NCBI GenBank assembly: GCA_034717985.1
Contig: JAYEMH010000039.1
Span: 1,784 to 65,783, forward strand
DNA: 64,000 bases
From: Candidatus Ratteibacteria bacterium
GTDB taxonomy: Bacteria > CAZDME01 > JAYEMH01
Direction of reading: 5' to 3'
Made by a program: the position numbers and the translations under genes. Below, piece by piece: positions 1 to 62,164 of this stretch; position 1 is the stretch's first letter, and every line of letters starts with the position of its first letter. Below the pieces are notes generated by a model that saw nothing but the letters and a program-made list of their open reading frames with translations, did not search any database and was not told the DNA's origin.

Positions 1-122
1 AAACGTCGACGGAATAAACATGTAAACAATCGCAAAAATAAGGTCGAATTTGATTTAATCTGTGTAATCTATTTTTTAATCTTTAAAATCAGGGGATGCT
101 GGCTTTTTCAGCAGACCCTAAA

Positions 123-160
123 TAGACGAAAAAAGTATACCACATAGGTATACCTTTGTC
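123..160 (-). promoter_or_regulatory. second copy of the TTGACA-N17-TATACT promoter/GGTATACC palindrome module, firing toward the window edge
   Basis: Minus-strand read TTGACAaaggtatacctatgtggTATACT; same architecture as 11295-11335. Confidence 0.4.
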
Positions 161-259
161 AAATCGCGTAGATTTTTTTATATCCTTCTTAACTTAAGTG
201 CACTATGAAAAAAATTTCCGAAAACAAGTTTTGGGAGAATCGCCGATAGTAAATAAATA

Positions 260-472
260 ATGCATCGTTTTCTTATTGTTATTGAAAAAGCAAACGGCAA
301 TTATTCAGCTTACTCACCAGATTTACCAGGTTGTGTCGCAACTGGGGTAACCCATGAAGAAGCTGAACTAAATATGCATCAGGCCGTTGAACTACATATC
401 CGTGGACTACTTGAAGATAAACTTCCAATTCCTGAATCGCACGCTTCAGCCGAATATGTAGCTGTTGTTTAA
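260..472 (+). CDS. HicB-family (UPF0150) antitoxin-like protein
   Basis: 70 aa; motif YSAYSPDLPGCVATGVTHEEA typical of HicB/UPF0150 RNase-H-fold antitoxins; lone plus-strand gene at the window edge. Confidence 0.55.
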   Translation: MHRFLIVIEKANGNYSAYSPDLPGCVATGVTHEEAELNMHQAVELHIRGLLEDKLPIPESHASAEYVAVV

Positions 473-517
473 GAGTTCAAGTATCAAAGAGCAAAATTCT
501 CGTTTCTCATTGAACAA

Positions 518-1807
518 TTACTGAAGCAGCCATTTCCATAAAGGGATAAATTTTATCACCCTGTTCTCAAACTTTTCCTCGCCTTCATAATCAGAGGTAA
601 TAACTAATAAATTGCTGGTTCCAGCTTTCATTTCTTTGCCGGCTTTTATAAGGGATTTAAACTCGCGCATCTTTGTATCGTAGTTTTCTATATCATAGCA
701 AACCTGAATTAGTTCTTTTATCACCGGTCCTTCTTTTAGCACAAAATCAACCTCTTTGCCTGAATAGTCCTGCCAATAATATATCTCTAATTTTGAAGAA
801 AGGGCCTTTCTTCTCATTAATTCCACGGCTACTGAATTTTCGTATAAGCGGCCAATGTTTTTCGAACTTCCGGTAGAAACAACATTTATCAAACCGGTAT
901 CAATTGCGTAAACTTTCCTGGGCGCAGTTACTTTTTCTTTTGTCTTAAAAGAGAACCTTTCAATTAAGAAAATCAGATAACATTCTTCAAGAAAATGCAG
1001 ATAATTCTGGGCAGTGTGGGTGCTTTTTAAACTAAATATATTCTTTAGTTTATTAAAAGTAACTTTACAGGAAAAATTGGAAATCAGATAATTAGAAAAT
1101 TCTTTTATGGTTTTTACATGCCTTATCTTATGTCTTAAGATTGTATCTTTCGTCAGAACTGTTGAATAAAGAGATAATAAATATCTTTTTTGATTTAGCT
1201 CTTTCAGGCTTTCGGGAAATCCGCCTCTCAGTAAAAAGGCTTCTAATTCTCTCCTTATTGAAGCTGTCTGTCTGGTTGTAAAGTGTTCTTTCTGGTATTT
1301 TAAATTACGGAATTTTAAAAATTCTCTGAAAGAAAAAGGAAAGAGTTCTAAAGAAAAATGCCTGCCGGTTAAATGAGTAGCTAATTCTTTACTTAAAAGC
1401 CTGGCATTGCTTCCGGTAATGACTAAATTAAAACCCTGTCTTTTCAGCCGGTTGACGAATAGTTCCCATTTTTCTATATTTTGTACTTCATCAAGTAATA
1501 TAAATTCAGGTTCTTCATAGAGTTCATAGAATGCCCTGAGAACTAAATTCAAATCTTCTGTTTTTAATCCGGCTAAATTCTCATCATCAAAATTTATATA
1601 GGCAAATCTTTTGCCCTTTAACAACTGATAACAAAGTATAGATTTACCTGCTCTTCTTGGGCCGGTGATTACTTTAATTAATCCTGACTTTAGAAAAACT
1701 CTATATTTATTTAAAAGCTCGCGGTCAATTATCTTCTCTCTGTTAAAGATAGATTCTAATTCCTCTTTCTGGTCAATTATTATTTGTTTAAGCGTTAAAT
1801 AATTCAT
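518..1807 (-). CDS. AAA+ ATPase with C-terminal DUF4143-like domain
   Basis: Walker A GPRRAGKS near N-terminus, Walker B ILLDEVQ; ~430 aa architecture typical of AAA_14+DUF4143 cassette ATPases. Confidence 0.7.
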   Translation of the reverse strand: MNYLTLKQIIIDQKEELESIFNREKIIDRELLNKYRVFLKSGLIKVITGPRRAGKSILCYQLLKGKRFAYINFDDENLAGLKTEDLNLVLRAFYELYEEPEFILLDEVQNIEKWELFVNRLKRQGFNLVITGSNARLLSKELATHLTGRHFSLELFPFSFREFLKFRNLKYQKEHFTTRQTASIRRELEAFLLRGGFPESLKELNQKRYLLSLYSTVLTKDTILRHKIRHVKTIKEFSNYLISNFSCKVTFNKLKNIFSLKSTHTAQNYLHFLEECYLIFLIERFSFKTKEKVTAPRKVYAIDTGLINVVSTGSSKNIGRLYENSVAVELMRRKALSSKLEIYYWQDYSGKEVDFVLKEGPVIKELIQVCYDIENYDTKMREFKSLIKAGKEMKAGTSNLLVITSDYEGEEKFENRVIKFIPLWKWLLQ

Positions 1808-1825
1808 AGTGCACAGTTCTCCTTA

Positions 1826-1863
1826 TTTTTATGCATTATAACTGCATAAAAGCAAAAAGTCAA
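1826..1863 (-). promoter_or_regulatory. consensus promoter TTGACT-N17-TATAAT overlapped by palindrome TTTATGCAgttataaTGCATAAA, for cassette gene 518..1807
   Basis: -35 1858-1863, -10 1835-1840 (minus strand). Confidence 0.55.
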
Positions 1864-2010
1864 GATAATTATCGGGTTTTGAGGTTTTGAAATTCCGGGG
1901 TCTTAAATTCCGATAAATAGGATAAATAGCGATAAATAGGGACGGATAAATAGGGACGATAAATAGGGACACCCTATTTCTAAATAGGGCAGACACCCTA
2001 TTTCCGCTAT

Positions 2011-2040
2011 CTCAATAAATCATATCCCTTTAATTCCAGC
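2011..2040. repeat. cassette junction motif copy (CTCAA..AAATCATATCCCTTTAATTCCAGC) preceded by hairpins AAATAGGG-aca-CCCTATTT
   Basis: One of six copies at 2011-2040, 3613-3651, 5151-5181, 5962-5995, 6046-6084, 6977-7013, each 30-50 bp 3' of a cassette ORF. Confidence 0.75.
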
Positions 2041-2076
2041 CAGGAGCAAGTGTCCCCAATACCATTCGTTTTCAGC

Positions 2077-3465
2077 TCAAGTAATGAGTTTGTCCTTGTG
2101 AAATAAATATACATTTTCTTTTTTTGCTATTTTTTTCATTTCCGGGGTAAATCCAGCTTTGCTAAACAAAGAAAAATATTCCTTTCTATTCTTTTTTCCC
2201 CACTCTACTTTTTGAGACTTTTCCCTTAAGTCTTCATAGATATTGGTCCCAATAGGCTTATTAGACCATTTAACTTCACCGAAAAGAATCTCATTTGCCA
2301 GGCTATTCAATGCAACAAGATCTATTTCTGCATCCTTATTCCACCAGCGGCCATAAGTTTCAAATTTAAGATGAATTTGGTTGTTCAGAATCGCGTTCAA
2401 GAAAATTTCACCTGATATTTTTTCATAGTTTCTGGATAGAAGTTCGGGAAGCGCTTTTTTTATTCTTATTGTTACCTCATTTATTCTATTTTCTTCAAGA
2501 AGAGATCGATTTCTAAAAACAAATCTAAACCAGAAATTGAAAAAATTATCATCTAACATATAGATGCCTTTCCTGCTCTTCTCGGGTATTTTTTCAGTAA
2601 CTGGTATTTCTTTTTTCGTAATCTGAAGATTTTCCAAAATAGAAATATAACGGGACGTCGTACCCTTATCAAAGCCGGTTTCATTTATAATTTCGGAAAG
2701 TTTATGTTTCCCTAAAGACAATGCTTCCAGTATTACAAAATAGTTCCGGGGTTCTTTTAATTTTTCTCTCAATAAAAATTCAACCTCTTCATAAAGAGGT
2801 TCTCCTTTTCTTAAAATCTCCTCCTTGATAACTTCAAGATAATCTCTATGATAGAACTTATTTAAATAGAGCGGGGTACCTCCAACAATGCTGTAAACAG
2901 ACAAAATTTCGTCAAATGCTTTGCGAGGAAAAACCTCTTTCACTTCCTTAAATCTAAAAGGTTTTATCAAAAACTGGCCTGTCCTTCTGCCATATAAAGG
3001 AGCCTTATAAAAAAGGGCGGTTTTTTCCATCATCGAGATACTTGAACCTAAAAGCAGCATATAAATCTTAGACTTCTTTAGATAAAGATCCCATGCCTTT
3101 TGAAAAGTTGAAGGTATCGCCTTATCACTTTCAGCTAAATAAGGAAATTCATCTATTATAATGCCTATTTTTTCTCTTCTATTAGCTATATATTTAAAAG
3201 CTGTTTCCCAGTCCTTAAATCCCTCCTCAGGTAGAAATTCATCTTTAAAGTATTCTGCTATAGTATCAGTAAACTTCCTTAGCTGATTACGAGCAGCTAT
3301 TCTTTCACATAAAAAATAGATGTGAGGTTTATTTTTTACAAACCGGATGCTAACTTCGGTCTTACCAACCCGCCGTTTACCATAGATTATAATTAATTGG
3401 GCTTTGTGCACATCCCATTTTTCATTAAGAAATTCCAGTTCTAATTCTCTGTTTATGAATCTCAT
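2077..3465 (-). CDS. archaeal-type ATPase (Arch_ATPase/DUF234 family)
   Basis: P-loop GKRRVGKTE, Walker B IIIDEFPYL, 462 aa; a consensus promoter sits upstream. Confidence 0.65.
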   Translation of the reverse strand: MRFINRELELEFLNEKWDVHKAQLIIIYGKRRVGKTEVSIRFVKNKPHIYFLCERIAARNQLRKFTDTIAEYFKDEFLPEEGFKDWETAFKYIANRREKIGIIIDEFPYLAESDKAIPSTFQKAWDLYLKKSKIYMLLLGSSISMMEKTALFYKAPLYGRRTGQFLIKPFRFKEVKEVFPRKAFDEILSVYSIVGGTPLYLNKFYHRDYLEVIKEEILRKGEPLYEEVEFLLREKLKEPRNYFVILEALSLGKHKLSEIINETGFDKGTTSRYISILENLQITKKEIPVTEKIPEKSRKGIYMLDDNFFNFWFRFVFRNRSLLEENRINEVTIRIKKALPELLSRNYEKISGEIFLNAILNNQIHLKFETYGRWWNKDAEIDLVALNSLANEILFGEVKWSNKPIGTNIYEDLREKSQKVEWGKKNRKEYFSLFSKAGFTPEMKKIAKKENVYLFHKDKLIT

Positions 3466-3495
3466 CCTAAACTCCTTCCTGCTAATCTAATCAGT

Positions 3496-3547
3496 ATAAT
3501 TCAATTTAGACTAATCTATTTTAGACTAATCAGGACGCTTTGTCAAT
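3496..3547 (-). promoter_or_regulatory. consensus sigma70 promoter TTGACA-N17-TAAAAT with GATTAGTCTAAA direct repeats, for cassette gene 2077..3465
   Basis: -35 at 3541-3546, -10 at 3518-3523 (minus strand); direct repeats overlap the -10. Confidence 0.55.
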
Positions 3548-3612
3548 CAAAAATTCTATCTCACCTTTTTGCTGAACATACATACAGTTCCGGGGTCCAG
3601 TTCCGGGGTCAA

Positions 3613-3651
3613 GTCTCAACATTTAACAAATCATATCTCTTTAATTCCAGC
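3613..3651. repeat. cassette junction motif copy GTCTCAACATTTAACAAATCATATCTCTTTAATTCCAGC preceded by TTCCGGGGTC direct repeats
   Basis: See above. Confidence 0.75.
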
Positions 3652-3693
3652 ATACTGGTAAATTCAGGCTTCCCGAATCACTTTCTACCAAAA

Positions 3694-4872
3694 CTACACA
3701 AGTGCGCTTAAGAACTTACTGGCGCTTATAACCCGAATATTATCCTTTATGAAATCAATGTTCCCTTCTTTCACCACCTCATAGATAAAGGGAATTTTAA
3801 GTTTCTCGCCAAAATATTTTAATGACGCCGGGATATCCTTATAGGTCGCCTTAACCTCAACACAAAACCAAACCTTGTTTCCAACCGTAATTAAAAAATC
3901 AACTTCCCTCTGTTCTTTGTCTCTCAGATAATACAGTTGAGCTTTATATCCTTCTGCGTCAAAAAGAAAGTGGCAAAATTTCAAAAGATGAGAGGCAATA
4001 ATATTTTCAAACCTGACATTTTCGTCTCCAATTTCAGACCAGTCCCACAAATACAACTTGGGTTCTTTTCTCAACGACTTTATAACATTAGTTTGAAAAG
4101 GATATATTCGGAAATGATAATAGAACTGTTCTAATATATCTACCCACAAAGATACTGTCTTATGGGTAACCCCTAAGTCTTCACGTAATGAATTCAAAGA
4201 AAAAAGAGACCCGGTTTTCCCTGGCAAAAGCTCAACTAACACCTGCAGGGCTGATATATCCCTTAGATTTTCAATATCCCGAATATCATCCTTTATGACC
4301 CTGTCAATTCTGGCGTTATGCCACCGTCGCAGCGTTTTCTCGCTTTGTTTGATAAATATTTCCGGGAAGCCGCCGAATTTAAATAAACGATTAAATAATT
4401 TCTTCTGCTGTGTATTTTCATCTGAGAAAACAAGTTCTTTGAAAGGATTACAAATTATCTCCGTGCTTGATAATTCGTGCAGGGAAAGAGGATGCAGCCT
4501 ATACGGATGATACCGGCCCAGCAATGAATCTCCACCTTTCTTATACACATCCAATCGTGCGCTGCCCGTTACCAGTATCTGAAATTCCTGTTTGTGCTTG
4601 TCATATTCCCCTTTTAAATAATTCTTCCATTTTCTATATTTATGAATTTCGTCAAAAACAATCAAATCTTTATCCGCCGGGAAGCTCTCGTTAAGAATAA
4701 GCTTTCTGTCTTGTCGATTATCCCAATTTAAATAGGCATATTTACCTGGAAAAAACTTATTGCTGATTTGTTTAGCCAGAGTAGTTTTGCCAATTTGGCG
4801 GGGGCCGGAAATAAAAACCATTTTATCCTTCAAATCATCCAAAACGTACTTTTCTAAATATCGCTTAATCAT
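3694..4872 (-). CDS. AAA+ ATPase, DUF4143 family (second copy, diverged)
   Basis: Walker A GPRQIGKTT, Walker B LIVFDEIHK; same architecture as 518..1807. Confidence 0.7.
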   Translation of the reverse strand: MIKRYLEKYVLDDLKDKMVFISGPRQIGKTTLAKQISNKFFPGKYAYLNWDNRQDRKLILNESFPADKDLIVFDEIHKYRKWKNYLKGEYDKHKQEFQILVTGSARLDVYKKGGDSLLGRYHPYRLHPLSLHELSSTEIICNPFKELVFSDENTQQKKLFNRLFKFGGFPEIFIKQSEKTLRRWHNARIDRVIKDDIRDIENLRDISALQVLVELLPGKTGSLFSLNSLREDLGVTHKTVSLWVDILEQFYYHFRIYPFQTNVIKSLRKEPKLYLWDWSEIGDENVRFENIIASHLLKFCHFLFDAEGYKAQLYYLRDKEQREVDFLITVGNKVWFCVEVKATYKDIPASLKYFGEKLKIPFIYEVVKEGNIDFIKDNIRVISASKFLSALV

Positions 4873-4901
4873 AAAATACCTCCATTTATCTCCTCTTATA
4901 A

Positions 4902-4929
4902 ATTATACCATAGTATAATTTTTTGTCAA
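4902..4929 (-). promoter_or_regulatory. promoter TTGACA-N16-TATAAT overlapped by palindrome ATTATACtatgGTATAAT, for cassette gene 3694..4872
   Basis: -35 4924-4929, -10 4902-4907 (minus strand). Confidence 0.5.
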
Positions 4930-5150
4930 ACATTTTCTACTTTAGGAGAATAATCTGGTTTTCTTGGGGACATTTTTATCTCAAGAGCTGGCACTAATTT
5001 CTATATGTTCTCTTCCATTATCTTTATTCTGCTTAATATATTATGCAATAGGGCAAGAAGTTCACCGATTAAGCTTTTCTCATTGATAATTAAATAATTA
5101 AATAAATTAAATAGCAGACACCCCTAAATAGGGACACCCTATTTCCCCTA

Positions 5151-5181
5151 TCTCAACAAATCATATCCCTTTAATTCCAGC
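5151..5181. repeat. cassette junction motif copy
   Basis: Preceded by the AAATAGGGACACCCTATTT hairpin at 5123-5146. Confidence 0.75.
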
Positions 5182-5235
5182 AATACCATTCGTTTTTAAT
5201 TCAGGTATGGGGCAAAACATGTACTGACCTCTCAA

Positions 5236-5625
5236 TCAAAGTCTATCTTTGAGTTTTATTAGTATCTTGTCCATCAATTCGAAATAACCTTTTATACCTT
5301 TATAAATTTTTTGCGCAACTTCTTCCTTGTAAGTATGAGATGTATCATTCCTTCTATCAGTCATTTCCTGAAGCTCAACCGTCTCATCTTCGGTAGAATA
5401 ACCTAATGAGAAAATTTCCCGGAAACACGTTTTCGGGGAATTACCGATAACACCCTCTTTTTCTTTGAGATACTCCTTAATAAACTTCCAAAAGGCCTCA
5501 AAAGAATATTCAAAACGCTGAATGGCGGCATCCCGGATAATTATTGAAAACGGTTCGTCGAATATTTTTTTTAATGTATCTAAAGCCTTCTGCGCATCTT
5601 TATATTTCAACTTTAATCTTTCCAT
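5236..5625 (-). CDS. HEPN-domain nucleotidyltransferase substrate-binding protein (HI0074 family)
   Basis: RRNDTSH matches the HEPN Rx4-6H motif; overlaps the upstream NTase gene by 13 nt (coupled pair). Confidence 0.6.
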   Translation of the reverse strand: MERLKLKYKDAQKALDTLKKIFDEPFSIIIRDAAIQRFEYSFEAFWKFIKEYLKEKEGVIGNSPKTCFREIFSLGYSTEDETVELQEMTDRRNDTSHTYKEEVAQKIYKGIKGYFELMDKILIKLKDRL

Positions 5626-5906
5626 ACAATCACCCCTTTCATTGCCTCTTTCTTAAAAGACTCTGAAACGTCTGCAAAAGTTACGATTTCCACTTTATAA
5701 GGAATATTCAAATCTTCTATTTTCTCGTTCAGTGAAATAATCTTTTTCTTATCAATATCCTCATAAGGAATAAGCCCGATGTCTACATCAGAGGTAGGAT
5801 GGTTATCTCCTCTGGCGCGCGAGCCAAAAAGCACTATCTTTACTCTTTCATCTTTTAATGTGTTTAACACTAATGCTTTTAATTTTGCTAAATACCTGTT
5901 TTCCAC
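5613..5906 (-). CDS. minimal nucleotidyltransferase (HI0073/MntA-like)
   Basis: GSRARGDNHPTSDVDIGL: GS...DxD pol-beta NTase signature. Confidence 0.65.
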   Translation of the reverse strand: MENRYLAKLKALVLNTLKDERVKIVLFGSRARGDNHPTSDVDIGLIPYEDIDKKKIISLNEKIEDLNIPYKVEIVTFADVSESFKKEAMKGVIVWKD

Positions 5907-5961
5907 AATGATATTCTCCTTATTACATTCCGCAATTCCGGGGTCACAATTCCGGGGTCAA

Positions 5962-6084
5962 GTCTCAACATTTAACAAATTATACTTTTTAATTCTTCTT
6001 CGCTCGGGATTCCCTTCGGTCACTTTGTCGGCTTAATCACTGCAGGTCTCAACATTTAACAAACCATATTCCTTTATTTCCAGC
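5962..6084. repeat. two tandem cassette junction motif copies with no cargo between them
   Basis: 5962-5995 and 6046-6084, each preceded by TTCCGGGGTC-type or hairpin sequence. Confidence 0.7.
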
Positions 6085-6115
6085 AAGGGGTTAAATATCA
6101 AAAGTTGCCAACTTC

Positions 6116-6532
6116 CTATAAAAATCTCTCAGTTATCTTAGTTAATATCATTTGTATATCGCCTTTCCCTTTAGTAAAAATAGAATATACCACATTTTTA
6201 TTAAGAGCTATATACTCATGCCCGACGATGTTTCGAAACCCAATCATTTTTTTCAATAATTCAAAATCATTACTGTCTAATATGCCTTTATCACCAAGCA
6301 TCTTTGCCGCTTCATAAGCCGTCTGCGGAAATCCATACCCTTCGTCCACCACTATATGCTGAATAATATCTATTAAGTGGTTTACTATCTGAAAAAGATT
6401 GTATTCGATGACGTCCTGAGTCTTCCCATCTTTTAAAAAATCCTCATAAGAAAGTCCACCATAGGCAGAAATTCGTTGAAAATGTTCCTCTATTTGCTTT
6501 ATTCTGCTCACTATAACGTCTTTATCCACCAT
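6116..6532 (-). CDS. hepT: HepT/DUF86 HEPN toxin
   Basis: RNIVGHEY HEPN motif near C-terminus; overlaps upstream mntA-like gene. Confidence 0.65.
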   Translation of the reverse strand: MVDKDVIVSRIKQIEEHFQRISAYGGLSYEDFLKDGKTQDVIEYNLFQIVNHLIDIIQHIVVDEGYGFPQTAYEAAKMLGDKGILDSNDFELLKKMIGFRNIVGHEYIALNKNVVYSIFTKGKGDIQMILTKITERFL

Positions 6533-6914
6533 AGCTATACCTCCTTTTGACTCTTGATATCTTCAATTCTCTTAAAGTGCGTGCGTCGTCATATGAATAG
6601 TAATTTCTGAAATAATCCCTTTTAAGATTCTCCTGCTTGTTAACCAAAAGCGGCTGGCCATGGGAAAATGCCTTTAAAACAAGTTCAGGGGGAGACTCAT
6701 TGGCCATAACTATATCTATCTTTCTTTTCAAAACCAGCGCTAATTCTGCGGTTAAATCATTTTTCTCAGGCGCATCTAAATTCCCCCCGATTAAAATATC
6801 TACATCACTTTCCCGAAGGGGTGTTTTAAGAGCAGAGCCAAACATAAAGGCATAATCAATCTTTTTGAATTTAGACAGAATTTTTCTGGCTTCTTCGATA
6901 TATTTTTCAGTCAT
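6522..6914 (-). CDS. mntA: MntA-type nucleotidyltransferase antitoxin
   Basis: FGSALKTPLRESDVDILI NTase motif; partner of adjacent HepT. Confidence 0.65.
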   Translation of the reverse strand: MTEKYIEEARKILSKFKKIDYAFMFGSALKTPLRESDVDILIGGNLDAPEKNDLTAELALVLKRKIDIVMANESPPELVLKAFSHGQPLLVNKQENLKRDYFRNYYSYDDARTLRELKISRVKRRYSYGG

Positions 6915-6957
6915 AATAAATTAATTTCCCTTCTCCGCTTCCAAAGAAGTTCCGGGA

Positions 6958-7878
6958 TCAAAAATTCCGGGGTCTGGTCTCAACATTTAACAAATTATAC
7001 CCTTTTATTATACTGCCGCAAACCATCTGGACCATATCGCTAAATTCTCCCATATCGCCTTTCCCTAAAGCAAGATAGTATTTATGGCGGTCATCTATCT
7101 GAATTATGGCCGGCGGGTAGCCTTTACTCAACAACTGGGTGATTAGAATCAAGCGGCCTACCCGGCCGTTTCCATCAAAAAAGGGATGGATGGCTTCAAA
7201 CTCATAATGGTCATTTGCTGCTTTACCAACAATATCCTTACCGTACCGATTGACATTGGATACAAACTTTTTCATCTTTATCGGAACCATCTGGGCTGAG
7301 GGAAGCGCCTTCTCGGTATTGGTAAGATTAACATAACCGGTCCTATATTTTCCCGGAAGCTTATTGTTGAAATTATACATCACTATAGAATGAAGCTTTA
7401 AGATATATTCTTCGTCAATTTTAAAGTTGGGTTTTATTCGCTCAAAGATAAATTCCAGGGCGTTTCTGTGATTTACTGCCTCTAAAACCTCAAAAAGATT
7501 TTTGCCTTTCACCTTTTCACCCTTAAATGCCTTCTCTGTCTCCCGGCGGGTCATTCGGTTCCCTTCAATGGCGTTGGAATTATAGGTCATCTCGAGACAG
7601 AATTTCTCCTGAATGGTTTTATTGCTTTTTAAGATTTTTATCGGGTTGCCCAGGTCATTTTTGAACCGGCGGATATACTCTCTTAAATCAACATGCTCTT
7701 TAAACAATTCGTCAATTTTATGAACTCGGGCCGGATGCGGTTTAATCCCCTTATCCAGCCAGCGGTAAACTGTTTTATAAGTAACCTCCATGAGTCTGGC
7801 CAATTCAGATCTGGATATCTTAGTCTGCTCAACGATTTTCCTTAACTTCTCGTTATCGGCAATTATTGCCTTTTTCAT
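6958..7878 (-). CDS. Fic/Doc family AMPylation-type protein with N-terminal HTH
   Basis: Canonical Fic motif [13 protein letters not shown]; N-terminal [23 protein letters not shown]; C-terminal residues run into the cassette junction motif. Confidence 0.8.
6977..7013. repeat. cassette junction motif copy overlapping the 3' end of the Fic gene
   Basis: The Fic ORF C-terminus ...GYNLLNVET is encoded by the motif. Confidence 0.7.
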
Positions 7879-7892
7879 TTCCCGCCTTTGTC

Positions 7893-7911
7893 AATAGGAC
7901 ATATGTCCTAT
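7893..7911. promoter_or_regulatory. perfect 18-bp palindrome ATAGGACATATGTCCTAT (likely operator) upstream of HTH-Fic gene
   Basis: Perfect inverted repeat 15 bp upstream of the Fic start; half-site TATGTCCTATA repeated at 7937-7947. Confidence 0.5.
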
Positions 7912-8041
7912 ATTTCCTTTCACCATAATTATACCATATGTCCTATAATAATCAAGGAAAATCATGTAAAAAACCCTGTTTTTTGCCGCGACTTTAAAAG
8001 AATGCTCCAGAGTATTTAGAAAATAGACGATTTTTATTTTT

Positions 8042-9181
8042 TTACTTATCGGTTGCTTTCTTCATAATTTCAAAGAATTGGCTGACATCTCTTATATCAA
8101 AAGCAACATCTTTGTTACTAACCAGAATTCCATCAGCCGTATCTATAGCCGGATTAAAACCGTGCATTCCCTGAGGGACATTATTACTCATAAAACTGGG
8201 GCTTATCAGGCATCCGGGATTCATCAGAAAAATTATTTCTCCATATCTTCTATCCGGGAAATATGCCCGCCAGTTTTTCAATTCTTCATCATTTAAAATC
8301 CTGCCCTGCCGGTTTTTCTTGAGCAGTTCAATAACGGCTGATTTCGTTTGTTCATTAAAAAACCAGAACCGGGCCATAGTGGAATCATACATTGCTAAAT
8401 AATCCTGCGGCATTTTAAAATTCAGTTTATCTATCTCCTTTTTTAAATCAATAGTTGAGTCAGTCGGTGTCATCCCGTGGTCGGAAAAAATATAGAGATT
8501 TACCTCTTTATATTTGTTGCCGGCAATTTTGAAAACCTGCTTTATTTTTTCCTCGTACGAATCGATAATTTCATTGACCTGGTTTTTCTCCTTACAGAAT
8601 TTATGTAACGCTCTATCTATGCCGGCTGAATAAAGAAAATAGACAGGGATGTCTTCTCTCTTTATTTTTTCGCCGACAATCCGAAAAAGTTCCGCATCAG
8701 CGGTGGTATAATTAAAACAGGCATATTTAATGCCTCTCGCCTTCCATACATCAAATATAGACTGGCAGTTGTCAAATCCTCCCGGCTCATAGATGCTTTT
8801 CCTCTCGCAAAGCTCAAAATAAGGCAGTAATTCAACCGGCACCACATAAGTCTCAAAATAGCCGGTGTAACCGGCTTTTTTCTGGCTGATTACCTCAATA
8901 ATCTTTCTTCCAAGACGGCTGTTCAGGCATTTCTTGGGGAGCCATCGGATATACTTAATCCAGCCGAACAAAACACTATTCGGGTTATAATGAAACAAGG
9001 ACCAGTGCTTATGCTCTTCAGGATATTTTCCGGTAACAATAGACGGCAAAATAGCGCTTGAATAGCCCAACAAGCTCTTTACCGGTCTTTTGGTCTTGGC
9101 TATCCCATCCAAAAACGGCCGGTTCTTAATATAAGTCCACCCCAACGCATCAATCAATATAAATATATTTACCTTTTCCAT
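8042..9181 (-). CDS. alkaline-phosphatase-superfamily enzyme, nucleotide pyrophosphatase/phosphodiesterase (NPP)-like
   Basis: ILIDALGW and LPSIVTGKYPEEHKHW resemble NPP/PF01663 metal-ligand and nucleophile regions. Confidence 0.5.
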   Translation of the reverse strand: MEKVNIFILIDALGWTYIKNRPFLDGIAKTKRPVKSLLGYSSAILPSIVTGKYPEEHKHWSLFHYNPNSVLFGWIKYIRWLPKKCLNSRLGRKIIEVISQKKAGYTGYFETYVVPVELLPYFELCERKSIYEPGGFDNCQSIFDVWKARGIKYACFNYTTADAELFRIVGEKIKREDIPVYFLYSAGIDRALHKFCKEKNQVNEIIDSYEEKIKQVFKIAGNKYKEVNLYIFSDHGMTPTDSTIDLKKEIDKLNFKMPQDYLAMYDSTMARFWFFNEQTKSAVIELLKKNRQGRILNDEELKNWRAYFPDRRYGEIIFLMNPGCLISPSFMSNNVPQGMHGFNPAIDTADGILVSNKDVAFDIRDVSQFFEIMKKATDK

Positions 9182-9219: not shown

Positions 9220-10521
9220 TTACTTTTTAGCAAATTTCTCCCAATTATAAACAACAATCTCTCTTAAATCATTCCAATCCAATTTCTTCTTCCTATATTC
9301 CCTCGGAATCACCGGAAGATGCCGTAGCACAAAATCCATCTTCTTTTTTTTACTGTGGACTATGGACTGCCGACTGTCGACCATACAATCATAGTTTACA
9401 TAAACTCCCATCCCGCACATCCATGCCAACATTTTCGGCGACCCTTTAAAAATCAATCTCACCGCCCGAAATAACGAAAAATTTCCGCTTTTCTCCTGAT
9501 ATAAAATCAACTTACACCAGCCTTTAATCTTATATTTTAGCCTTTCTCTTTTTAAATTTAACTTCGCCAGCTCTCTGTAGTCTGCAATCTGTGGTCTGTG
9601 GTCTGTGGACTGTCGACTGCCTGCCCTGAGCGAAGTCGAAGGGTGGACTATTTGAAACTTCCCGCTCTCCCACAGCCAGATATCTTTATAATAATTTCTT
9701 AGTTTTTCCCATTCTTTCAATACTTCTTTGCGGCTTTTAAATAACAAATCCTCTTTCGGATTCAATTTAAAATCCATCCATTTCCTAATCTTTTCCATTA
9801 AAGGGGAGGAGGATGGTATCGGGGTGTAATCAAGCCGGTTCATTTGGGCCAACATATTTTTATAAAGCGGTTCATATTTGCCTTCGGCAATTAAAATAGA
9901 AGAGGCAAGATTAACATAGCCCTTACAAATTTGGTAGGTTTGCGTGGGCATTATCCCCTTCTTATCTCCAAATATTTCTTTTAATTGCTCTAAGGCCCGG
10001 TTAAAAATAACCACCATTGATTCTTCCTTTTTGATATCATCCCTTTTATAATCAGGGACTACATCTAAAATCTTCCGGTTTCCCCATACCACCTTGCCGT
10101 AGTTCTTTAATTCGTAGGTAAAAGCGGTTGGGGGCATTTTTGTTAAAGACTTTTCTAAAAAAAGACTTAAATCAACTTCAAGATCAAATTCTTCTTCTTT
10201 AAGCTTCCTTGAAACATTTATGCTGATTTGGTTCGGTTTATCTCTTAACATCCGATAATCTGCTTCTTTAGTTAATACAACTATGAATTCCGAATCGCTT
10301 AAAAATACCGGCCGATTATTTCTGTCAATATATACCGTTCCTTCTCCTTTGGAGAAACTGCCGATTAATATGACTGATTCTATATTCTGCCCGGATATAT
10401 TTTCAACGATAACCTCACAAACGTTTTTTAAAAAGTCTTGCACAACAAAATCATACGTCTTTATATTTAAGAATTTGTCTTTTAAAGATGTTTTTTCAGT
10501 TGCGGCTTTATTTTCTGCCAT
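9220..10521 (-). CDS. hypothetical protein, possible pol-beta-like nucleotidyltransferase domain; contains in-frame dispersed-repeat insertions
   Basis: LIGSFSKGEGTV...LSDSEF weakly resembles a GS...DxE NTase signature; two copies of the GTGGACT-type repeat inside the ORF translate in frame; 5' end overlaps udk. Confidence 0.3.
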   Translation of the reverse strand: MAENKAATEKTSLKDKFLNIKTYDFVVQDFLKNVCEVIVENISGQNIESVILIGSFSKGEGTVYIDRNNRPVFLSDSEFIVVLTKEADYRMLRDKPNQISINVSRKLKEEEFDLEVDLSLFLEKSLTKMPPTAFTYELKNYGKVVWGNRKILDVVPDYKRDDIKKEESMVVIFNRALEQLKEIFGDKKGIMPTQTYQICKGYVNLASSILIAEGKYEPLYKNMLAQMNRLDYTPIPSSSPLMEKIRKWMDFKLNPKEDLLFKSRKEVLKEWEKLRNYYKDIWLWESGKFQIVHPSTSLRAGSRQSTDHRPQIADYRELAKLNLKRERLKYKIKGWCKLILYQEKSGNFSLFRAVRLIFKGSPKMLAWMCGMGVYVNYDCMVDSRQSIVHSKKKKMDFVLRHLPVIPREYRKKKLDWNDLREIVVYNWEKFAKK

Positions 10522-20894: not shown

Positions 20895-21075
20895 TTTTTC
20901 TCTGTGTCCTTTTTATTTTTTTGTCTTTCTGTTAGAGGGACGGGCATGCCCGTCCCCTACATATTTTTCAATCCTTTTAAAACCCTGCCTGCCCCGTAAC
21001 TCCGCCAAAGGCGGATGGTATTGGGGTAAATCCTGTCAAAAATTCTTTGTTTTTTTCTTTCAATTCTATTCTAAT
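20895..21075. repeat. ~100-150 bp direct repeat copy 1 (contains palindrome GGGACGGGCATGCCCGTCCC) flanking vapBC
   Basis: Near-identical to 21785-21900; copy 1 carries an extra ~45-bp internal segment. Confidence 0.7.
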
Positions 21076-21120
21076 ATTTAAATAAAACCGTTCCCTTTTT
21101 ACTTACTTATTATTTTTCGA

Positions 21121-21501
21121 TTAATTAGACGCTGGCCCTATTTTCTTATAAGCTATCCTTAATATAGCAGCTGCGTGTTGCAGCTTAGTATCTAAAGTCC
21201 ATAGAGAAACTTCATTTAATAGCGTAGTTGCCAGAAGATGAACATCAATAAGGCCAATGCCCTTACCCATCAAATTCTTGTTTTCAATAAATAATAATAC
21301 TTCTTCATTGTCTATCACCTCAACCATAGGGAGAGAACTAAGCAATGACAAAATTACTCTCCTGTTCTTAATATTACCGCATGCAAGTTCTCCAATAATG
21401 AAAGGATGGCAAACTACATCACCGTCATTCAGGAGTTGCTCGAGTTTAGAATTACTATTGTGTAAATGAGAAACCCATACTGATGTATCAACAAGAATCA
21501 T
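21121..21501 (-). CDS. vapC: PIN-domain ribonuclease toxin
   Basis: MILVDTSVW N-terminus, conserved acidic residues of PIN fold. Confidence 0.8.
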   Translation of the reverse strand: MILVDTSVWVSHLHNSNSKLEQLLNDGDVVCHPFIIGELACGNIKNRRVILSLLSSLPMVEVIDNEEVLLFIENKNLMGKGIGLIDVHLLATTLLNEVSLWTLDTKLQHAAAILRIAYKKIGPASN

Positions 21502-21692
21502 TAATTCACTCTCCTGCGAGGTATAATATGTAAATTCTTTTCGGTCCCCCCTAATTTAGCCAGCCTTTTACTGCTTTCTCGAGCAATTAGCGCTTCCAAA
21601 CCTAATCTGACTAGAGTGGTTTTCTCTTTAATTCCCGTGAGTCTTGATACTTTTTTAATCAAGTCGTCTTTAATATTTAATGTTGTTCTCAT
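21501..21692 (-). CDS. vapB: VapB-type antitoxin
   Basis: MRTTLNIKDDLIKKVSRLTGIKEKTTLVRLGLEALI; start taken at internal Met of the longer tracked ORF; 1-nt overlap with vapC. Confidence 0.55.
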   Translation of the reverse strand: MRTTLNIKDDLIKKVSRLTGIKEKTTLVRLGLEALIARESSKRLAKLGGTEKNLHIIPRRRVN

Positions 21693-21784
21693 ATAGCAAC
21701 TCCTTTCATATATTTCATATGTATTAGTATGCACCAAATATACATATATGTCAAGTTTTTTTGGTATAACGAGTCTGTAGAAAA

Positions 21785-21900
21785 AGCCCATTTTATTTTT
21801 TTGTCTTTCTGTTAGAGGGACGGGCGTGTCCGTCCCCTACATATTTTTTAATCCTTTTTAAATCCTGTAAATCCTGTCAAAAAAATTTTATTTTTTTTAT
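21785..21900. repeat. direct repeat copy 2 (GGGACGGGCGTGTCCGTCCC hairpin) between vapB and trxB
   Basis: Aligns with 20895-21075 over ~100 bp. Confidence 0.7.
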
Positions 21901-36283: not shown

Positions 36284-36370
36284 TGATTCTATTAAACCTA
36301 TTCATTGCTGCTTTCAGACCATGGCGGATAAAAACCTCTATTGGCAGGGTAATAAGTAAAAAGGGGTAGG
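36284..36370 (-). pseudogene. diverged duplicate of the pth 3' end (encodes ...IEVFIRHGLKAAMNRFNRINVL-like peptide)
   Basis: 24-bp exact match GATTCTATTAAACCTATTCATTGC plus ~65% identity over a further ~60 bp to pth codons at 37084-37170. Confidence 0.6.
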
Positions 36371-36390
36371 TTCTATCAAACCTAAAATCT

Positions 36391-36735
36391 TTAATCAAAT
36401 TCCCCAACCTCCACTTTTAGTATTTTAGCCTTCAAATCAAAAATATCCTCTTTAATAACCTTCCAAGTTCGCTCTAAATTTACCCCAGAGTATTCGTGAA
36501 TAAGAATATCTCTCATTCCAGCAATCTTTTTCCATGGTATTTCAGGGTATTTTTCTCTGAATTCCAAAGGAATATTCTTTACCGCCTCACCTATAATTTC
36601 CAATCGTCTTAAAACAGCATCCTGTATCTGAGTATTTTCAAAAAAGTCATCCCCGGTAATTTCTTTTGTATATTCTTCTATTTTCCCGATGCAGTCCAAA
36701 ATATCCTCGATATATACCCGCATGTTTTTTTTCAT
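36391..36735 (-). CDS. hepT: HepT/DUF86 HEPN toxin
   Basis: [15 protein letters not shown] and RDILIHEY (Rx4HxY) HEPN motifs. Confidence 0.7.
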
Positions 36736-37019
36736 AGAATCGCCACCTGTTCTTTTAAAATCTTCTCCTTAAGAAGGGGCTTGATTGTATTGTACTCCAC
36801 CAAATCTACTCTTCTCCCTAACTTTTCTTCAATTTCCAGTTTAACCCCTACAAAATCGAGTAAGCTGATATCCTTCTCAATTTCTACCAATATATCAATA
36901 TCGCTATCCTCTCTCATCTCTCCTCGAACACAGGAGCCAAATAATCCTATTTTTTTCACCCCATAGCGCTGTAAAATTGGAAGAATTTTTCGCTTTATCT
37001 CATCTATGTTTTTCGTCAT
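36732..37019 (-). CDS. mntA: MntA-type nucleotidyltransferase antitoxin
   Basis: [22 protein letters not shown]. Confidence 0.7.
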
Positions 37020-37083
37020 ATCATCACCCTTAGAACATAGCGACTATTGATTTTCCCTCTGTGGTTAAATTCTTTGCCTGTGG

Positions 37084-37650
37084 TTAATTCAAAACATCGA
37101 TTCTATTAAACCTATTCATTGCCGGTTCAATGCCGTCGGTGATAAAGACTTCTATCGTCTGGATTATATAATCAATAAAAAAAGGTAAATCTCTTTTCTG
37201 CTTTTGGCTGAATTCAGCCAGCACATAATTACTCAACTCTCTTTTTTCCCCTCCCTCAACCCCCAATCGCAAACGTGGAAATTCACCCGTTCCTAACACT
37301 TCAATAATGGATTTTAACCCGTTATGCCCCCCGGCGGATCCCTTCCCCCGAAAACGCACTTTTCCCCAGGGAAGATTAACATCATCTACCACAACCAATA
37401 TATTTTTTAATTTTAAGCGAAACTTCTTGACTAATTGTTTAACTGTTCCGCCGCTTAAATTAACATAGGTAAGCGGCCTGGCTAAAATTACTGTTTCTTT
37501 TCCCATAAGAATCTTTCCCCACCGGGCCGAATAATCTTTCTTATCCAATTTAATTTCATGCTTTTTCGCCAGAGCCTCAACTGCTAAAAAACCAAAATTG
37601 TGCCGGGTCTTCCGGTAACGCGGCCCCGGATTCCCCAAGCCAACAATCAT
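37084..37650 (-). CDS. pth: peptidyl-tRNA hydrolase
   Basis: MIVGLGNPGPRYRKTRHNFGF; start moved to internal Met because the tracked N-terminal extension is translated repeat DNA. Confidence 0.85.
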   Translation of the reverse strand: MIVGLGNPGPRYRKTRHNFGFLAVEALAKKHEIKLDKKDYSARWGKILMGKETVILARPLTYVNLSGGTVKQLVKKFRLKLKNILVVVDDVNLPWGKVRFRGKGSAGGHNGLKSIIEVLGTGEFPRLRLGVEGGEKRELSNYVLAEFSQKQKRDLPFFIDYIIQTIEVFITDGIEPAMNRFNRIDVLN

Positions 37651-46009: not shown

Positions 46010-46070
46010 TTCCTAATGCCCCCTATTCGACAGGATTAACAGGATGTTTTATCATCTTCTTTAAATCGCT
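46010..46070 (-). pseudogene. diverged duplicate of the RND-pump gene 3' end (encodes ...KHPVNPVE* vs genuine ...DHINPVE*)
   Basis: 19-bp exact repeat CCCTATTCGACAGGATTAA at 46022-46040 and 46690-46708 with extended ~65% similarity on both sides. Confidence 0.6.
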
Positions 46071-46152
46071 CAAAATTCATACCTTCCACAAACTTTTCTA
46101 TACTTTCCATAGAGCCCGGAATATCTTGCAAATAAAGTTTATTGTTTCTCAT
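46036..46152 (-). pseudogene. hepT: truncated hepT (DUF86) N-terminal fragment, 38 codons
   Basis: Own translation MRNNKLYLQDIPGSMESIEKFVEGMNFERFKEDDKTSC* aligns to HepT N-termini (e.g. 36391..36735: [21 protein letters not shown]); ATGA overlap with mntA stop; reading frame runs into the duplicated pump-3' sequence. Confidence 0.5.
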
Positions 46153-46442
46153 AAATAGGCTGCCTCTTTCAGAATAGATTTTTTCAACTCTTCTCTTAAG
46201 GCTCTCTCTGGTACCACATCTACCTTCTGATTGAGTTTTTCTTCAAGGAATAAAGCCAGCCCCAAAAAATCAAAAAGGTCTGCATTTTCTTCAAATTCCA
46301 CAAGGATATCAATGTCACTACCCTTTTTTTGCTCTCCCTTTATAAATGAGCCGAAAAGCCCCAACCTTTTCACTTTATATTTCTTCATGATTTCTTCCCT
46401 TACCTGCTCAAGTAATCTTAGAATTTCTTCTTTTGACATCAT
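46149..46442 (-). CDS. mntA: MntA-type nucleotidyltransferase (orphaned antitoxin)
   Basis: [24 protein letters not shown]; start at internal MMSKEE. Confidence 0.65.
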   Translation of the reverse strand: MMSKEEILRLLEQVREEIMKKYKVKRLGLFGSFIKGEQKKGSDIDILVEFEENADLFDFLGLALFLEEKLNQKVDVVPERALREELKKSILKEAAYL

Positions 46443-46687
46443 CTCTTTGTCTCCGCAACAAAAATTAATCTGGAAATATTCAATTCTTAATGTGATAATC
46501 TGCCTCATTATCCCACAAAAAAAAAGAGAAGTCAATAAAAAAACCCCGTCGTAAAACGGGAGTTTTTTGAAACTTAGCCTCTTTCCAAACTATTTATTTG
46601 TTAAACCCTTTTTCACCTCTTTAAAAATGAATCTCCGTCTTTTAACTTAAACCTCAAGAAAACTTTCAACAGAATTTTCGTAAGGCC

Positions 46688-59810: not shown

Positions 59811-60269
59811 TTATTGAAATACAAGAGAATTCAAATTGTTAAGTTTTCGCCCCTCCATTAGGTAGTCATCAATGGATTTTTTATATTGATTCTCAGCATT
59901 GTTGTATTCTTCCCAACCAATTTTTTCTTTTTGACTTTTCTTGTAGAGCAACTGCTGTTTATTGAGGAGAAAATTAATTGTAACTAGCAATTTGTCAAAG
60001 AAAGATATAAGTTGATTCAAATATTTCTTCTCATTATCATCCAAATTATCTCCATTTTCTTTCTTAAAGGAAAGCATTCCTTTCCTTTTTATTTCAAATT
60101 TTCTCAATATTTCATGACAATCATTAAGTATTTTCTCGAAGTCAACTTTTTTAAAAAGACTTATAAATATTCCACCTTTTTTTAAAATCTTATCGTGTAG
60201 CTGAATATATTCAGAAAGCAAATCATTGACCTCAAAAGAGAGTTTTTTCAATATTTCTGTATTATTCAT
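59811..60269 (-). CDS. hypothetical helical protein
   Basis: ORF only; no recognisable motif. Confidence 0.3.
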   Translation of the reverse strand: MNNTEILKKLSFEVNDLLSEYIQLHDKILKKGGIFISLFKKVDFEKILNDCHEILRKFEIKRKGMLSFKKENGDNLDDNEKKYLNQLISFFDKLLVTINFLLNKQQLLYKKSQKEKIGWEEYNNAENQYKKSIDDYLMEGRKLNNLNSLVFQ

Positions 60270-60312
60270 TTCTACCTATAATACGGCGCTACACCCTTTT
60301 CTTATTTTATTA

Positions 60313-60648
60313 TTAAACCTTTGGCGATTTCTTCTGTAACGTTCTTGCGCCGCGAAAATCGTGCTTTCGTTTCATGCGGTCAATCAGCTTCCCGTTTTTC
60401 TGTTCGATCAAAAGAAGGGAAAGTAAAATCTCCCGCCAGTCCTCAATGGTCCCATTGACACCAGCAACTTCCAGTCCGTCACTGGCGTACCATATCTCAA
60501 ATTTCTGCTTACAGCATCCACACTTGAGCAGATACCGAGGAGTCTTCTTTCCTGTACCCTTTTTGTGGTACACCCTGATTTGCGGCTGGCTGAATCGGGA
60601 TGTGTCATAGAACCGATTGGCTCGTTTTGGGATTTGCTGTTTCATCAT
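60313..60648 (-). CDS. hypothetical Cys-rich protein (CGCCKQK)
   Basis: ORF only. Confidence 0.3.
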   Translation of the reverse strand: MMKQQIPKRANRFYDTSRFSQPQIRVYHKKGTGKKTPRYLLKCGCCKQKFEIWYASDGLEVAGVNGTIEDWREILLSLLLIEQKNGKLIDRMKRKHDFRGARTLQKKSPKV

Positions 60649-60843
60649 TACATTATTATCTCCGTGCTAACAATCAATAAACGTATCACGCAATTTACGG
60701 CGTTTTTTTTAATGGAAGACAGGTTATAAACCTGTCCTTCCCGGTATTTGGTTTTTGATATTTTCTTTATCCTCTGCCCATGTGGATGGGTTATTGATTA
60801 TGTATTCATCTGTAGGGGCAGGCGCGCCTGACCCGTTAATTTT

Positions 60844-61607: not shown

Positions 61608-61638
61608 ATAATCAGCGTCTTTTTAAATAGAGGACAGG

Positions 61639-62094: not shown

Positions 62095-62164
62095 AACATA
62101 AAAATCAGCGACTGGTGCCCGCAGAGCGAAGCGGAGCGGGTAAACAGTCCACTGATTTGCTTTG

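Follow-up and report, generated by a model that had tools for sequence, protein, structure and literature searches.

The 64-kb stretch of Candidatus Ratteibacteria DNA analyzed here (the window, whose positions serve as coordinates throughout) contains a small gene array in which a short junction motif recurs six times. We found that this motif repeats, in decayed form, the end of the helix-turn-helix (HTH)–Fic gene that anchors the array. Our preferred reading, which we hold tentatively and to which we assign a probability of roughly 0.4, is that the array is a small defense/toxin–antitoxin island to which units resembling cis-mobilizable elements (CIMEs) would have been added in tandem, at an att-like site lying in the 3′ end of the HTH-Fic gene, itself mobile. 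The evidence comes from the origin and anatomy of the junctions, from a closely related strain that lacks one unit, and from comparable footprints at other gene ends in the same window and in other candidate phyla.

Origin of the junction motif in the 3′ end of Fic

All six motif copies described in an earlier note on this DNA were located, on the plus strand and inside positions 2,010–7,015, at distances of 31 to 54 nt from the 3′ end of the preceding minus-strand open reading frame (ORF; Table 1). A profile built from the six copies recovered these six only in the 64 kb, and it additionally matched the Fic end on one related contig. A pattern search allowing up to three mismatches matched four of the six copies, the expectation from shuffled sequences being 0.

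Translated on the minus strand, the motif reads LELKGYDLLNVET, which corresponds to residues ~289–301 of the 306 residues of Fic. The C-terminal stretch ...SIIKGYNLL is conserved in 120 of the 120 best homologs, the tails beyond it being divergent. Its match to this conserved C terminus identifies the motif as copied from the 3′ end of Fic. The earlier note had equated the motif with the actual C terminus of the Fic protein; the derivation from the gene end stands, and the position is corrected to lie just short of the very end. In c1 and c3 the homology to Fic reaches upstream to the Q-M-V codons, giving a total of ~55–75 nt. The noncoding copies c1, c2, c3, and c5 have derived changes in common (GCTGGAATTAAAG.. 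and a 3-nt deletion), and these changes are absent from the resident Fic gene and from the 120 homologs. For this reason, the copies appear to have been propagated as noncoding site arms and not through independent truncations of Fic, which puts c1, c2, c3, and c5 in a predicted line of descent from one another as noncoding sequence.

Anatomy of the junctions

The junctions are of two types. Type B (c2, c4, c5, and c6) carries a 7-nt insert and an invariant 18-bp core, TTTGTTAAATGTTGAGAC. The four type-B copies and the related contig L034 show no difference in this core, and most positions are variable in the 18 nt on its left side. Except in c5, the core is followed, after a gap of 2–3 nt, by two GA(C/T)CCCGGAA boxes; the sequence of these GACCCCGGAA boxes is constant, and their spacers measure 3–5 nt. 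Type A (c1 and c3) is without 7 nt of the core block, and hairpin repeats come next. The decamer TTCCGGGGTC is present in seven exact copies, each adjoining a junction and all within the array, and the hairpin AAATAGGGACACCCTATTT occurs twice; the direct repeats and hairpins that had been reported to follow the motifs are real. The c5/c4 pair, noted earlier as a junction pair without cargo, is real.

The motif copies form nested repeats. Copies c6 and c4, which are 87% identical over 52 nt, flank a unit of 1,015 bp, and copies c3 and c1, with 96% identity over 49 nt and 85% over another 27 nt, flank a unit of 3,141 bp that comprises two genes (ATPase3, c2, ATPase2).

The hairpin arm beside c1 and c3, AAATAGGGAC(A), recurs in other Omnitrophota contigs (L004 2985, L008 10904, L045 2985, and L049). 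In one set of loci, this arm stands directly after the Fic stop codon, and in L049 (17776–17880), it builds a long palindrome between convergent genes. These arms may belong to a family of terminator repeats or of repeats resembling repetitive extragenic palindromes (REPs). A scan of window positions 1–9000 against Rfam gave no match at E ≤ 1.

A related strain lacks one unit

The closest Fic homolog (97% protein identity) was found on L034, a Logan contig whose DNA is 95% identical to the window and in which the upstream neighbor of Fic is the same phosphodiesterase gene. In L034, Fic is joined straight to the nucleotidyltransferase (NTase)/HEPN pair of cassette 2, the orthologs of which show 92–99% protein identity, and the 1,015-bp unit with MntA/HepT is missing. 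The L034 junction consists of the Fic left arm, the core, and the right arm of c4, with the breakpoint inside the 18-bp core. The two alignments of L034 to the window overlap by 57 nt at the repeat, and from the core onward, c4 is identical to the Fic-proximal junction of L034. L034 thus shows the configuration of the empty site that the earlier note had proposed to look for in relatives.

A different arrangement is seen in L031, another Omnitrophota contig, where a DUF4143 ATPase gene lies, reversed, between an intact Fic gene and a second copy of at least the last 60 nt of Fic; the two copies match over 43 nt with 97.7% identity. Four AAA_14+DUF4143 genes surround Fic in L031 (8565–15825). 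Besides the window lineage, L031 is the only one of 45 compared loci with DUF4143/AAA_14 ATPases after Fic, among the families listed. A protein hidden Markov model of the Fic C terminus, run over 75 loci, detected a second copy in L031 only, this type of search being insensitive to short, frameshifted copies.

In the metagenome contigs of JGI, the pattern of the right half of the motif gave 0 matches, and in IMG/VR there were 0 matches for either half. The 18-bp core matched IMG/VR once, which we took as chance. Twelve IMG/VR matches to the tandem GACCCCGGAA pattern were rejected, being coding T-P-E repeats on high-GC phage contigs.

Fic as a putative mobile cassette

More than 3,000 homologs of the Fic gene are spread over Omnitrophota, Saganbacteria, Margulisiibacteriota, and Elusimicrobia, where their contexts are unrelated, and those at 57–80% identity (from these groups and WOR-1) sit between unrelated housekeeping genes. 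The conserved unit consists of ~80 nt of promoter with a ATAGGACATATGTCCTAT operator, plus the ORF through the LL codons. This palindromic operator is located between the Fic promoter and the start codon, with a half-site overlapping the −10 box (window 7894–7911 and ~7930–7945; also in L035, L081–L083, L006, L019, and L064), and it presumably allows autoregulation of Fic via the N-terminal HTH domain.

Direct repeats of 18–57 nt flank the Fic cassette in 14 of the 59 loci for which both flanks are available, with scores far above those from shuffled sequences; these 14 loci represent ~12 distinct ones, three of them being near-identical copies of one locus. In the repeat-flanked loci examined in detail (Table 1), the copy on the upstream side corresponds to the 3′ end of the gene before the cassette. 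L061 and L064 provide a second pair of occupied and empty sites, in this case for a 364-aa Fic-like gene. In L061, which is of WOR-1/Saganbacteria type (890–3215; also L022 and L062), the 3′ end of a glycosyltransferase gene, together with a 28-nt element (CGCGGTAGAGCAGGGGTTGGTGT..), occurs three times, and the three glycosyltransferase-end copies bound two different Fic-family cassettes. L064 (9870–10960) is without one Fic-family cassette and without the 28-nt element of L061. Judged from these comparisons of loci, Fic itself appears to be a mobile promoter-plus-ORF cassette and not a fixed chromosomal target. No copy of the phosphodiesterase gene end was found downstream of the window Fic gene or of the array.

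The same footprint at other gene ends

The footprint, that is, a cassette bordered by a duplicate of the 3′ end of the gene upstream, was found at three more sites in the window, all of them small toxin–antitoxin insertions (Table 1), and it is not specific to Fic. At the Pth gene, the central 24 of 24 nt are identical, and the flanks have diverged (..GLKAAMNRFNRINVLKNGE* versus ..GIEPAMNRFNRIDVLN*). An identical core between diverged homologous arms, as seen at Pth and at the AcrB-type gene, is as expected for hybrid attL/attR sites or crossovers between diverged alleles, and not for fresh target duplications. At the AcrB-type gene, a HepT-like ORF (46040–46150, minus strand) is broken off after ~38 codons, exactly at the displaced AcrB 3′ copy, and a tandem ATCCTGT at this joint suggests microhomology-mediated deletion. 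The footprint is present in other candidate phyla too, there with Fic as the inserted cassette.

Genes, promoters, and composition of the array

The array genes, which all lie on the minus strand, were annotated using Pfam, NCBIfam, and PADLOC profiles, and the cargo assignments made earlier from the sequence were borne out. The junctions separate three AAA-ATPase/PD-(D/E)XK genes, two NTase/HEPN pairs, and one HTH-Fic gene. The PADLOC E-values were 4e-107 and 2e-56 for PDC-S01, 2e-44 for PDC-S27, 1e-36 for PDC-S04, and 3e-12 for PDC-S09, and by these profiles, the matching genes are candidate defense genes. DUF4143 and DUF234 are counted among the PD-(D/E)XK families (PMC3424549). In cassette 1, the product of ORF 6116–6532 scored 104.6 bits against NCBIfam HepT_toxin (cutoff 60), and that of ORF 6522–6914 reached 45.3 bits for MntA, which is under the cutoff of 60, with Pfam Polbeta/NTP_transf_2 domains present. 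The two genes overlap by 11 nt, which fits the layout of a type VII toxin–antitoxin MntA/HepT pair.

A promoter scan revealed near-consensus promoters (10–12 of 12) only for the three ATPase genes and Fic, and none for the two NTase/HEPN pairs, which begin 45–56 nt after a junction. The earlier proposal that every cassette carries its own sigma70 promoter is therefore correct for the three ATPase units and incorrect for both NTase/HEPN pairs. On other contigs, the sigma70-type promoters of these three of the five units (11–12 of 12) are conserved together with their genes. Both the ATPase2 unit and the ATPase3 unit amount to promoter plus ORF and show 75–78% nucleotide identity to copies in other contigs, the proteins of which are labeled Nitrospinae, Planctomycetes, or Elusimicrobia. 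In four other loci, no direct repeats were found flanking the ATPase2/ATPase3 homologs. For the DUF4143 ATPase unit, DNA homology extends from ~70–85 nt before the start codon to the stop codon. The promoter region of the DUF4143 ATPase, AAGTAGAAAATGTTTGACA..TGGTATAAT (window 4902–4958), is conserved with the ORF across contigs of different phylum labels, with copies in L077 (2205–2290), L078 (5931–6000), and L079 (5253–5322).

The GC content of the array is 34–38%, compared with 42–46% for core genes, and GC skew did not point to a replication terminus there. At both window ends, the GC content is 33–36%. No motif copy follows cassette 5, the last unit. Near the window start, an 11/12 consensus promoter on the minus strand (134–162) points leftward, past a HicB-like antitoxin gene (260–472, plus strand), and further accessory genes probably lie just beyond the window start.

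Table 1. Positions of the array genes, junction motifs and modules, and of related footprints. Locus names are given for Fic cassettes on other contigs.
Feature	Location	Strand	Description
HTH-Fic gene	6958–7878	-	306 aa; array anchor; Pfam Fic 72.9 bits; PADLOC PDC-S04/SoFic
Cassette 1	6116–6914	-	MntA-like NTase (6522–6914) + HepT (6116–6532); starts 45 nt past Fic stop; no own promoter
Cassette 2	5236–5906	-	NTase (5613–5906) + NTase_sub_bind/HEPN (5236–5625); no own promoter
Cassette 3	3694–4958	-	AAA_14+DUF4143 ATPase (ORF 3694–4872); PDC-S01; own 12/12 promoter 4929–4902
Cassette 4	2077–3546	-	ATPase_2+DUF234 ATPase (ORF 2077–3465); PDC-S27; own promoter 3546–3518; GATTAGTCTAAA operator-like repeat
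Cassette 5 (last unit)	518–1863	-	AAA_14+DUF4143 ATPase (ORF 518–1807); PDC-S01, E 4e-107; own promoter 1863–1835
Motif c1	2010–2040	+	Type A
Motif c2	3614–3651	+	Type B
Motif c3	5151–5181	+	Type A
Motif c4	5962–~6000	+	Type B, degenerate
Motif c5	6047–6084	+	Type B
Motif c6	6977–~7015	+	Type B, within Fic ORF
Module c6	6946–7040	-	Type B; functional Fic 3′ end; core TTTGTTAAATGTTGAGAC 6977–6994; two GA(C/T)CCCGGAA boxes 6950–6974
Module c5	6046–6086	-	Type B; core intact, left arm diverged; no boxes; then 46-nt cargo-less spacer
Module c4	5932–6000	-	Type B; left arm decayed, frameshifted; core intact 5962–5979; two GACCCCGGAA boxes 5936–5959
Module c3	5116–5207	-	Type A; pseudo-Fic 3′ end ..RMVLLELKGYDLLR*, then hairpin AAATAGGGTGTCCCTATTT
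Module c2	3584–3672	-	Type B; left arm; core 3613–3630; two GACCCCGGAA boxes 3588–3610
Module c1	1893–2083	-	Type A; pseudo-Fic 3′ end with 17-nt insertion; tandem + inverted (G)ATAAATAGGGAC repeats; one GACCCCGGAA box
MntA/HepT pair at Pth	36285–37122	-	Pth 3′ end 37099–37122; displaced diverged copy 36285–36335
NTase + truncated HepT at AcrB-type gene	46021–46704	-	Stop region 46686–46704; displaced copy 46021–46039, 19/19 nt, flanks diverged
PIN gene unit at TrxB-like gene	20911–21883	-	77-nt (93.5%) + 17-nt direct repeats with downstream terminator hairpin
Fic flanking repeat	L019		42 nt; codon-like differences
Fic flanking repeat	L064		27 nt
Fic flanking repeat	L057		≥57 nt
Fic flanking repeat	L061		47 nt; three copies

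Discussion

Proposed growth of the array by accretion

In the scheme that we favor, an incoming unit would recombine within the short core TTTGTTAAATGTTGAGAC, which would give Fic a new end and shift the previous end downstream. The displaced end, freed of coding constraint, would then decay, and the 38-bp motif would represent a series of displaced Fic pseudo-3′-ends together with arm sequences, either GACCCCGGAA boxes or AAATAGGG hairpins. The units would have been reduced to addictive or defense cargo (PDC-S01 and PDC-S27 ATPase-nucleases, NTase/HEPN pairs) and, like CIMEs, would have kept their att repeats in the absence of an integrase, the recombinase being encoded elsewhere and acting in trans, or lost. 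The repeats would still mediate the loss or gain of whole units. Two points in this scheme are inferred: the junctions would be the work of a site-specific recombinase, and the units would be what is left of larger elements. A site defined by an enzyme is favored by the invariance of the core, the conservation of the boxes, and arms that seem to move with unrelated cargo. Moreover, direct repeats carrying the target 3′ end flank the units, and the target ORF is intact, which is what is expected of an accretion island. Serial integration into the end of a single gene had been put forward earlier; repeated recombination at the Fic 3′ end is retained from that proposal, and Fic as a fixed target and the mobility of 1-kb cassettes are not.

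Several results weigh against accretion by a site-specific recombinase. Among the window ORFs of at least 100 aa, no tyrosine/serine recombinase, integrase, or resolvase gene or pseudogene was found, and beside 11 other repeat-flanked Fic cassettes, no recurrent recombinase family was present in the best 25 of 124 families (ORFs of at least 140 aa). The core is without clear dyad symmetry. It is much to ask of random decay that all five units were trimmed to exactly one complete gene or operon each, leaving less than 200 nt of other sequence. Since the footprint occurs at four different gene ends in 64 kb, either several integrase specificities or a sequence-independent mechanism would be needed. 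The Fic 3′ end does not behave as a general hotspot, as 45 other loci have unrelated housekeeping genes downstream. Finally, although L034 may be regarded as the unoccupied site for one unit, it is equally explicable as the product of a deletion between direct repeats.

The statement in the earlier note that no recombinase lies inside the window applies to integrases and resolvases; the sole recombinase-like gene that we found there encodes a Y1 (IS200-type) transposase resembling REP-associated tyrosine transposases (RAYTs), at 61639–62217 on the minus strand. Against the REP_Tyr_transpos profile (cutoff 80), its product reached 50.5 bits, and the FHDH and YYVT motifs that it contains are HUH-like. 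Hairpins of the form GGACAGG..CCTGTCC are located within and just after the gene (61625–61660 and 61885–61910), and a 38-nt repeat of this hairpin lies 0.9 kb away (60700–60737). The array hairpins have only TAGGGACA in common with these hairpins. Downstream of Fic in 45 loci, no recurrent recombinase family was seen among the best 25 families listed. Several window ORFs of 111–433 aa gave no Pfam match at E ≤ 1e-4 or 1e-5 (within 9220–10521, 59811–60648, and 62884–63958, all on the minus strand); those at 60–64 kb share a low-GC stretch with the RAYT-like gene and a CopG-like antitoxin.

Alternative explanations

The absence of a recombinase, both from the window scans and from the neighborhoods of other Fic cassettes, would be accounted for if the exchange were driven by homology and involved no dedicated recombinase, an explanation that we consider possible but doubtful. 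Cassettes would then pass between related genomes, carrying along a short piece copied from the end of the neighboring gene, and would enter, as circles excised between direct repeats or as linear DNA taken up, by Campbell-type or unequal crossover at the longest identity, with repeat-mediated loss as the reverse. Such a process suits the occurrence of the footprint at unrelated targets (Fic, Pth, AcrB, a terminator, a glycosyltransferase, and a 660-aa gene) and the range of repeat lengths, from 19 to more than 77 nt, as well as the resemblance of the displaced copies at L019 and Pth to diverged target alleles, with conservative codon-like differences. On the other hand, stretches of 18–24 identical nucleotides inside repeats of 77–90% identity are poor RecA substrates, the origin of the first duplication is left unexplained, and so is the invariance of the GACCCCGGAA boxes and the core beside arms that drift.

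The invariant core and the conserved boxes would also suit active capture that resembles, and is unrelated to, that of integrons. Here, units of ~1 kb would have a box or hairpin left end and a Fic-like right end, and a recombinase acting in trans would read the core and boxes, excising and inserting the units. Unrelated cargos indeed have both end types in common, tight against their ORFs, one unit (c5–c4) is cargo-less, and the presence/absence difference from L034 has the size of one unit. Nevertheless, we regard active capture as unlikely, considering that neither the JGI metagenome contigs nor IMG/VR yielded the modules, which are known from one lineage only, that the promoter-plus-ORF ATPase units occur elsewhere without these ends, and that there is neither a recombinase candidate nor evidence of circles. 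A broader form of the idea would be that Ratteibacteria/Omnitrophota have an integron-independent system in which promoter-bearing defense or toxin–antitoxin units of ~1 kb are excised from and inserted at the 3′ ends of genes, either by a recombinase acting in trans or by the AAA-ATPase/PD-(D/E)XK proteins of the cassettes themselves. The site would be the 18-bp core plus GACCCCGGAA boxes, and the pseudo-3′-end footprints (Pth, AcrB, glycosyltransferase, and Fic, in several candidate phyla) would reflect one shared, undescribed mechanism for single-gene selfish cassettes. We offer this broader proposal as speculation with the odds clearly against it.

Sequence-independent insertion with long target duplications made in situ, whether transposition-like or by repair, with selection keeping those gene-end insertions that leave the gene intact, would explain why, at all sites, the repeats are target-derived and directly adjoin the inserts, and the high identity of the 77-nt terminator repeat (93.5%) and of c1/c3 (96%) is in line with it. 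We judge it improbable. The displaced Pth, AcrB, and L019 copies retain diverged homology past the identical core, unlike fresh duplications, no transposase is present within the units, and we know of no prokaryotic transposase that yields duplications of 19–100 nt. Least credible of all, and very improbable in our view, is an ancient fixed cluster in which the repeats are regulatory (terminators or operators) or RAYT-spread REP elements and have no role in gene gain: the recurrence of AAATAGGGAC hairpin arms in other Omnitrophota intergenic regions and the RAYT-like gene in the window speak for it, but the repeat stems from Fic coding sequence, is confined within the window to a 5-kb stretch, has no hairpin in its type-B form, and belongs to a cluster that differs between 95%-identical strains.

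Comparison with known systems

The earlier note had drawn an analogy with integrons, based on heptamers in the motif that resemble integron cores, and had suggested folding the junctions. Integron arrays and clusters of attC sites lacking integrases (CALINs) resemble the present array in having co-oriented cassettes, a repeated site 3′ of each ORF, toxin–antitoxin and defense cargo, and one empty unit. They differ from it because the site here is a copy of the coding end of a gene and because three cassettes have strong promoters of their own. Folding of the six junctions on both strands (12 folds) yielded no shared attC-like hairpin, with z-scores from −1.8 to +1.0, and the type-B junctions formed no hairpin. 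No RYYYAAC partner was found for the GTTRRRY string, apart from a chance ATTTAAC/GTTAAAT 7-nt pair in c5. With no attC palindrome, no inverse core, no IntI in the window, an empty Rfam scan, and promoters in three of five units in place of promoterless cassettes, the defining features of integrons are lacking, and we therefore rejected an integron or CALIN.

Tandem accretion at the 3′ end of a protein gene has been described for integrative and conjugative elements (ICEs), integrative and mobilizable elements (IMEs), and CIMEs, for example ICESt1/ICESt3–CIME at fda, with an accretion-and-decay route (PMC5704250). As in those islands, the target ORF is intact, the elements are stacked in tandem, and integrase-less units retain att repeats. 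Unlike them, the array consists of units of 1–1.5 kb with a single gene or operon, no integrase is present in any unit or within the 64 kb, the gene that serves as target is a mobile cassette in its own right, and the lineage is Candidatus Ratteibacteria/Omnitrophota. Staphylococcal cassette chromosome (SCC) composite islands also accrete at a protein-gene end, namely the 3′ end of rlmH/orfX.

The tycheposons of Prochlorococcus are tRNA-anchored islands that arise from repeated integration (bioRxiv 10.1101/2020.12.28.424599). In such islands, newcomers displace older units outward and partial target copies are found through the island, in streamlined genomes, all of which recalls the present locus; the differences are that the target here is the end of a protein gene and not a tRNA, and that no fragmented integrases were seen. 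Archaeal tRNA gene-capture arrays are likewise tRNA-anchored islands formed by repeated integration.

In Xer/dif elements, such as the arrays of integrative mobile elements exploiting Xer (IMEXs) at dif and the pdif modules of Acinetobacter plasmids, short sites bound recombinase-less modules and the host recombinase acts in trans. The array is similar in having short repeated sites around small modules without a recombinase, and ATTTGTTAAAT matches the XerD arm of Escherichia coli dif at 9 of 11 positions, the presumed XerC arm matching at ~5 of 11 (compared by eye). Neither a XerC arm nor a 6-bp spacer layout is convincingly present, however, and the sites are all direct and lie inside a gene end. 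The resemblance to dif/Xer, as judged by eye, is weak.

Finally, rhs and cdiA loci have downstream arrays of orphan toxin/immunity genes, in which fragments of the upstream gene are repeated before each module. Fragments of the upstream gene are also repeated ahead of successive downstream modules here, but they code only for the last 13–25 residues plus the stop codon, and recombination would swap no functional domain. A polymorphic-toxin reading (Rhs-like or resembling contact-dependent inhibition, CDI) was rejected because the repeated fragment codes only for the last 13 residues plus stop.

Implications

Compared with known accretion islands, what is new here is the combination of very small, integrase-less units, an anchor that is itself a mobile gene, and an uncultivated lineage. 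The defense islands of streamlined, uncultivated phyla are known mainly as gene lists, and integrons are rare in these genomes. The locus described here offers a readable record of island growth, in which the displaced gene ends put the insertion events in order. If a dedicated enzyme is involved, the 18-bp core plus the boxes would be its concrete site; if there is no enzyme, the locus would document the shuffling of defense genes by short gene-end homologies alone. Either way, the very abundant PDC-S01/PDC-S27 ATPase-nuclease genes and HTH-Fic genes are flagged as minimal mobile units of promoter plus ORF, and the same footprint marks single-gene cassettes (Fic, PIN, and MntA/HepT) in this genome and in other candidate phyla.

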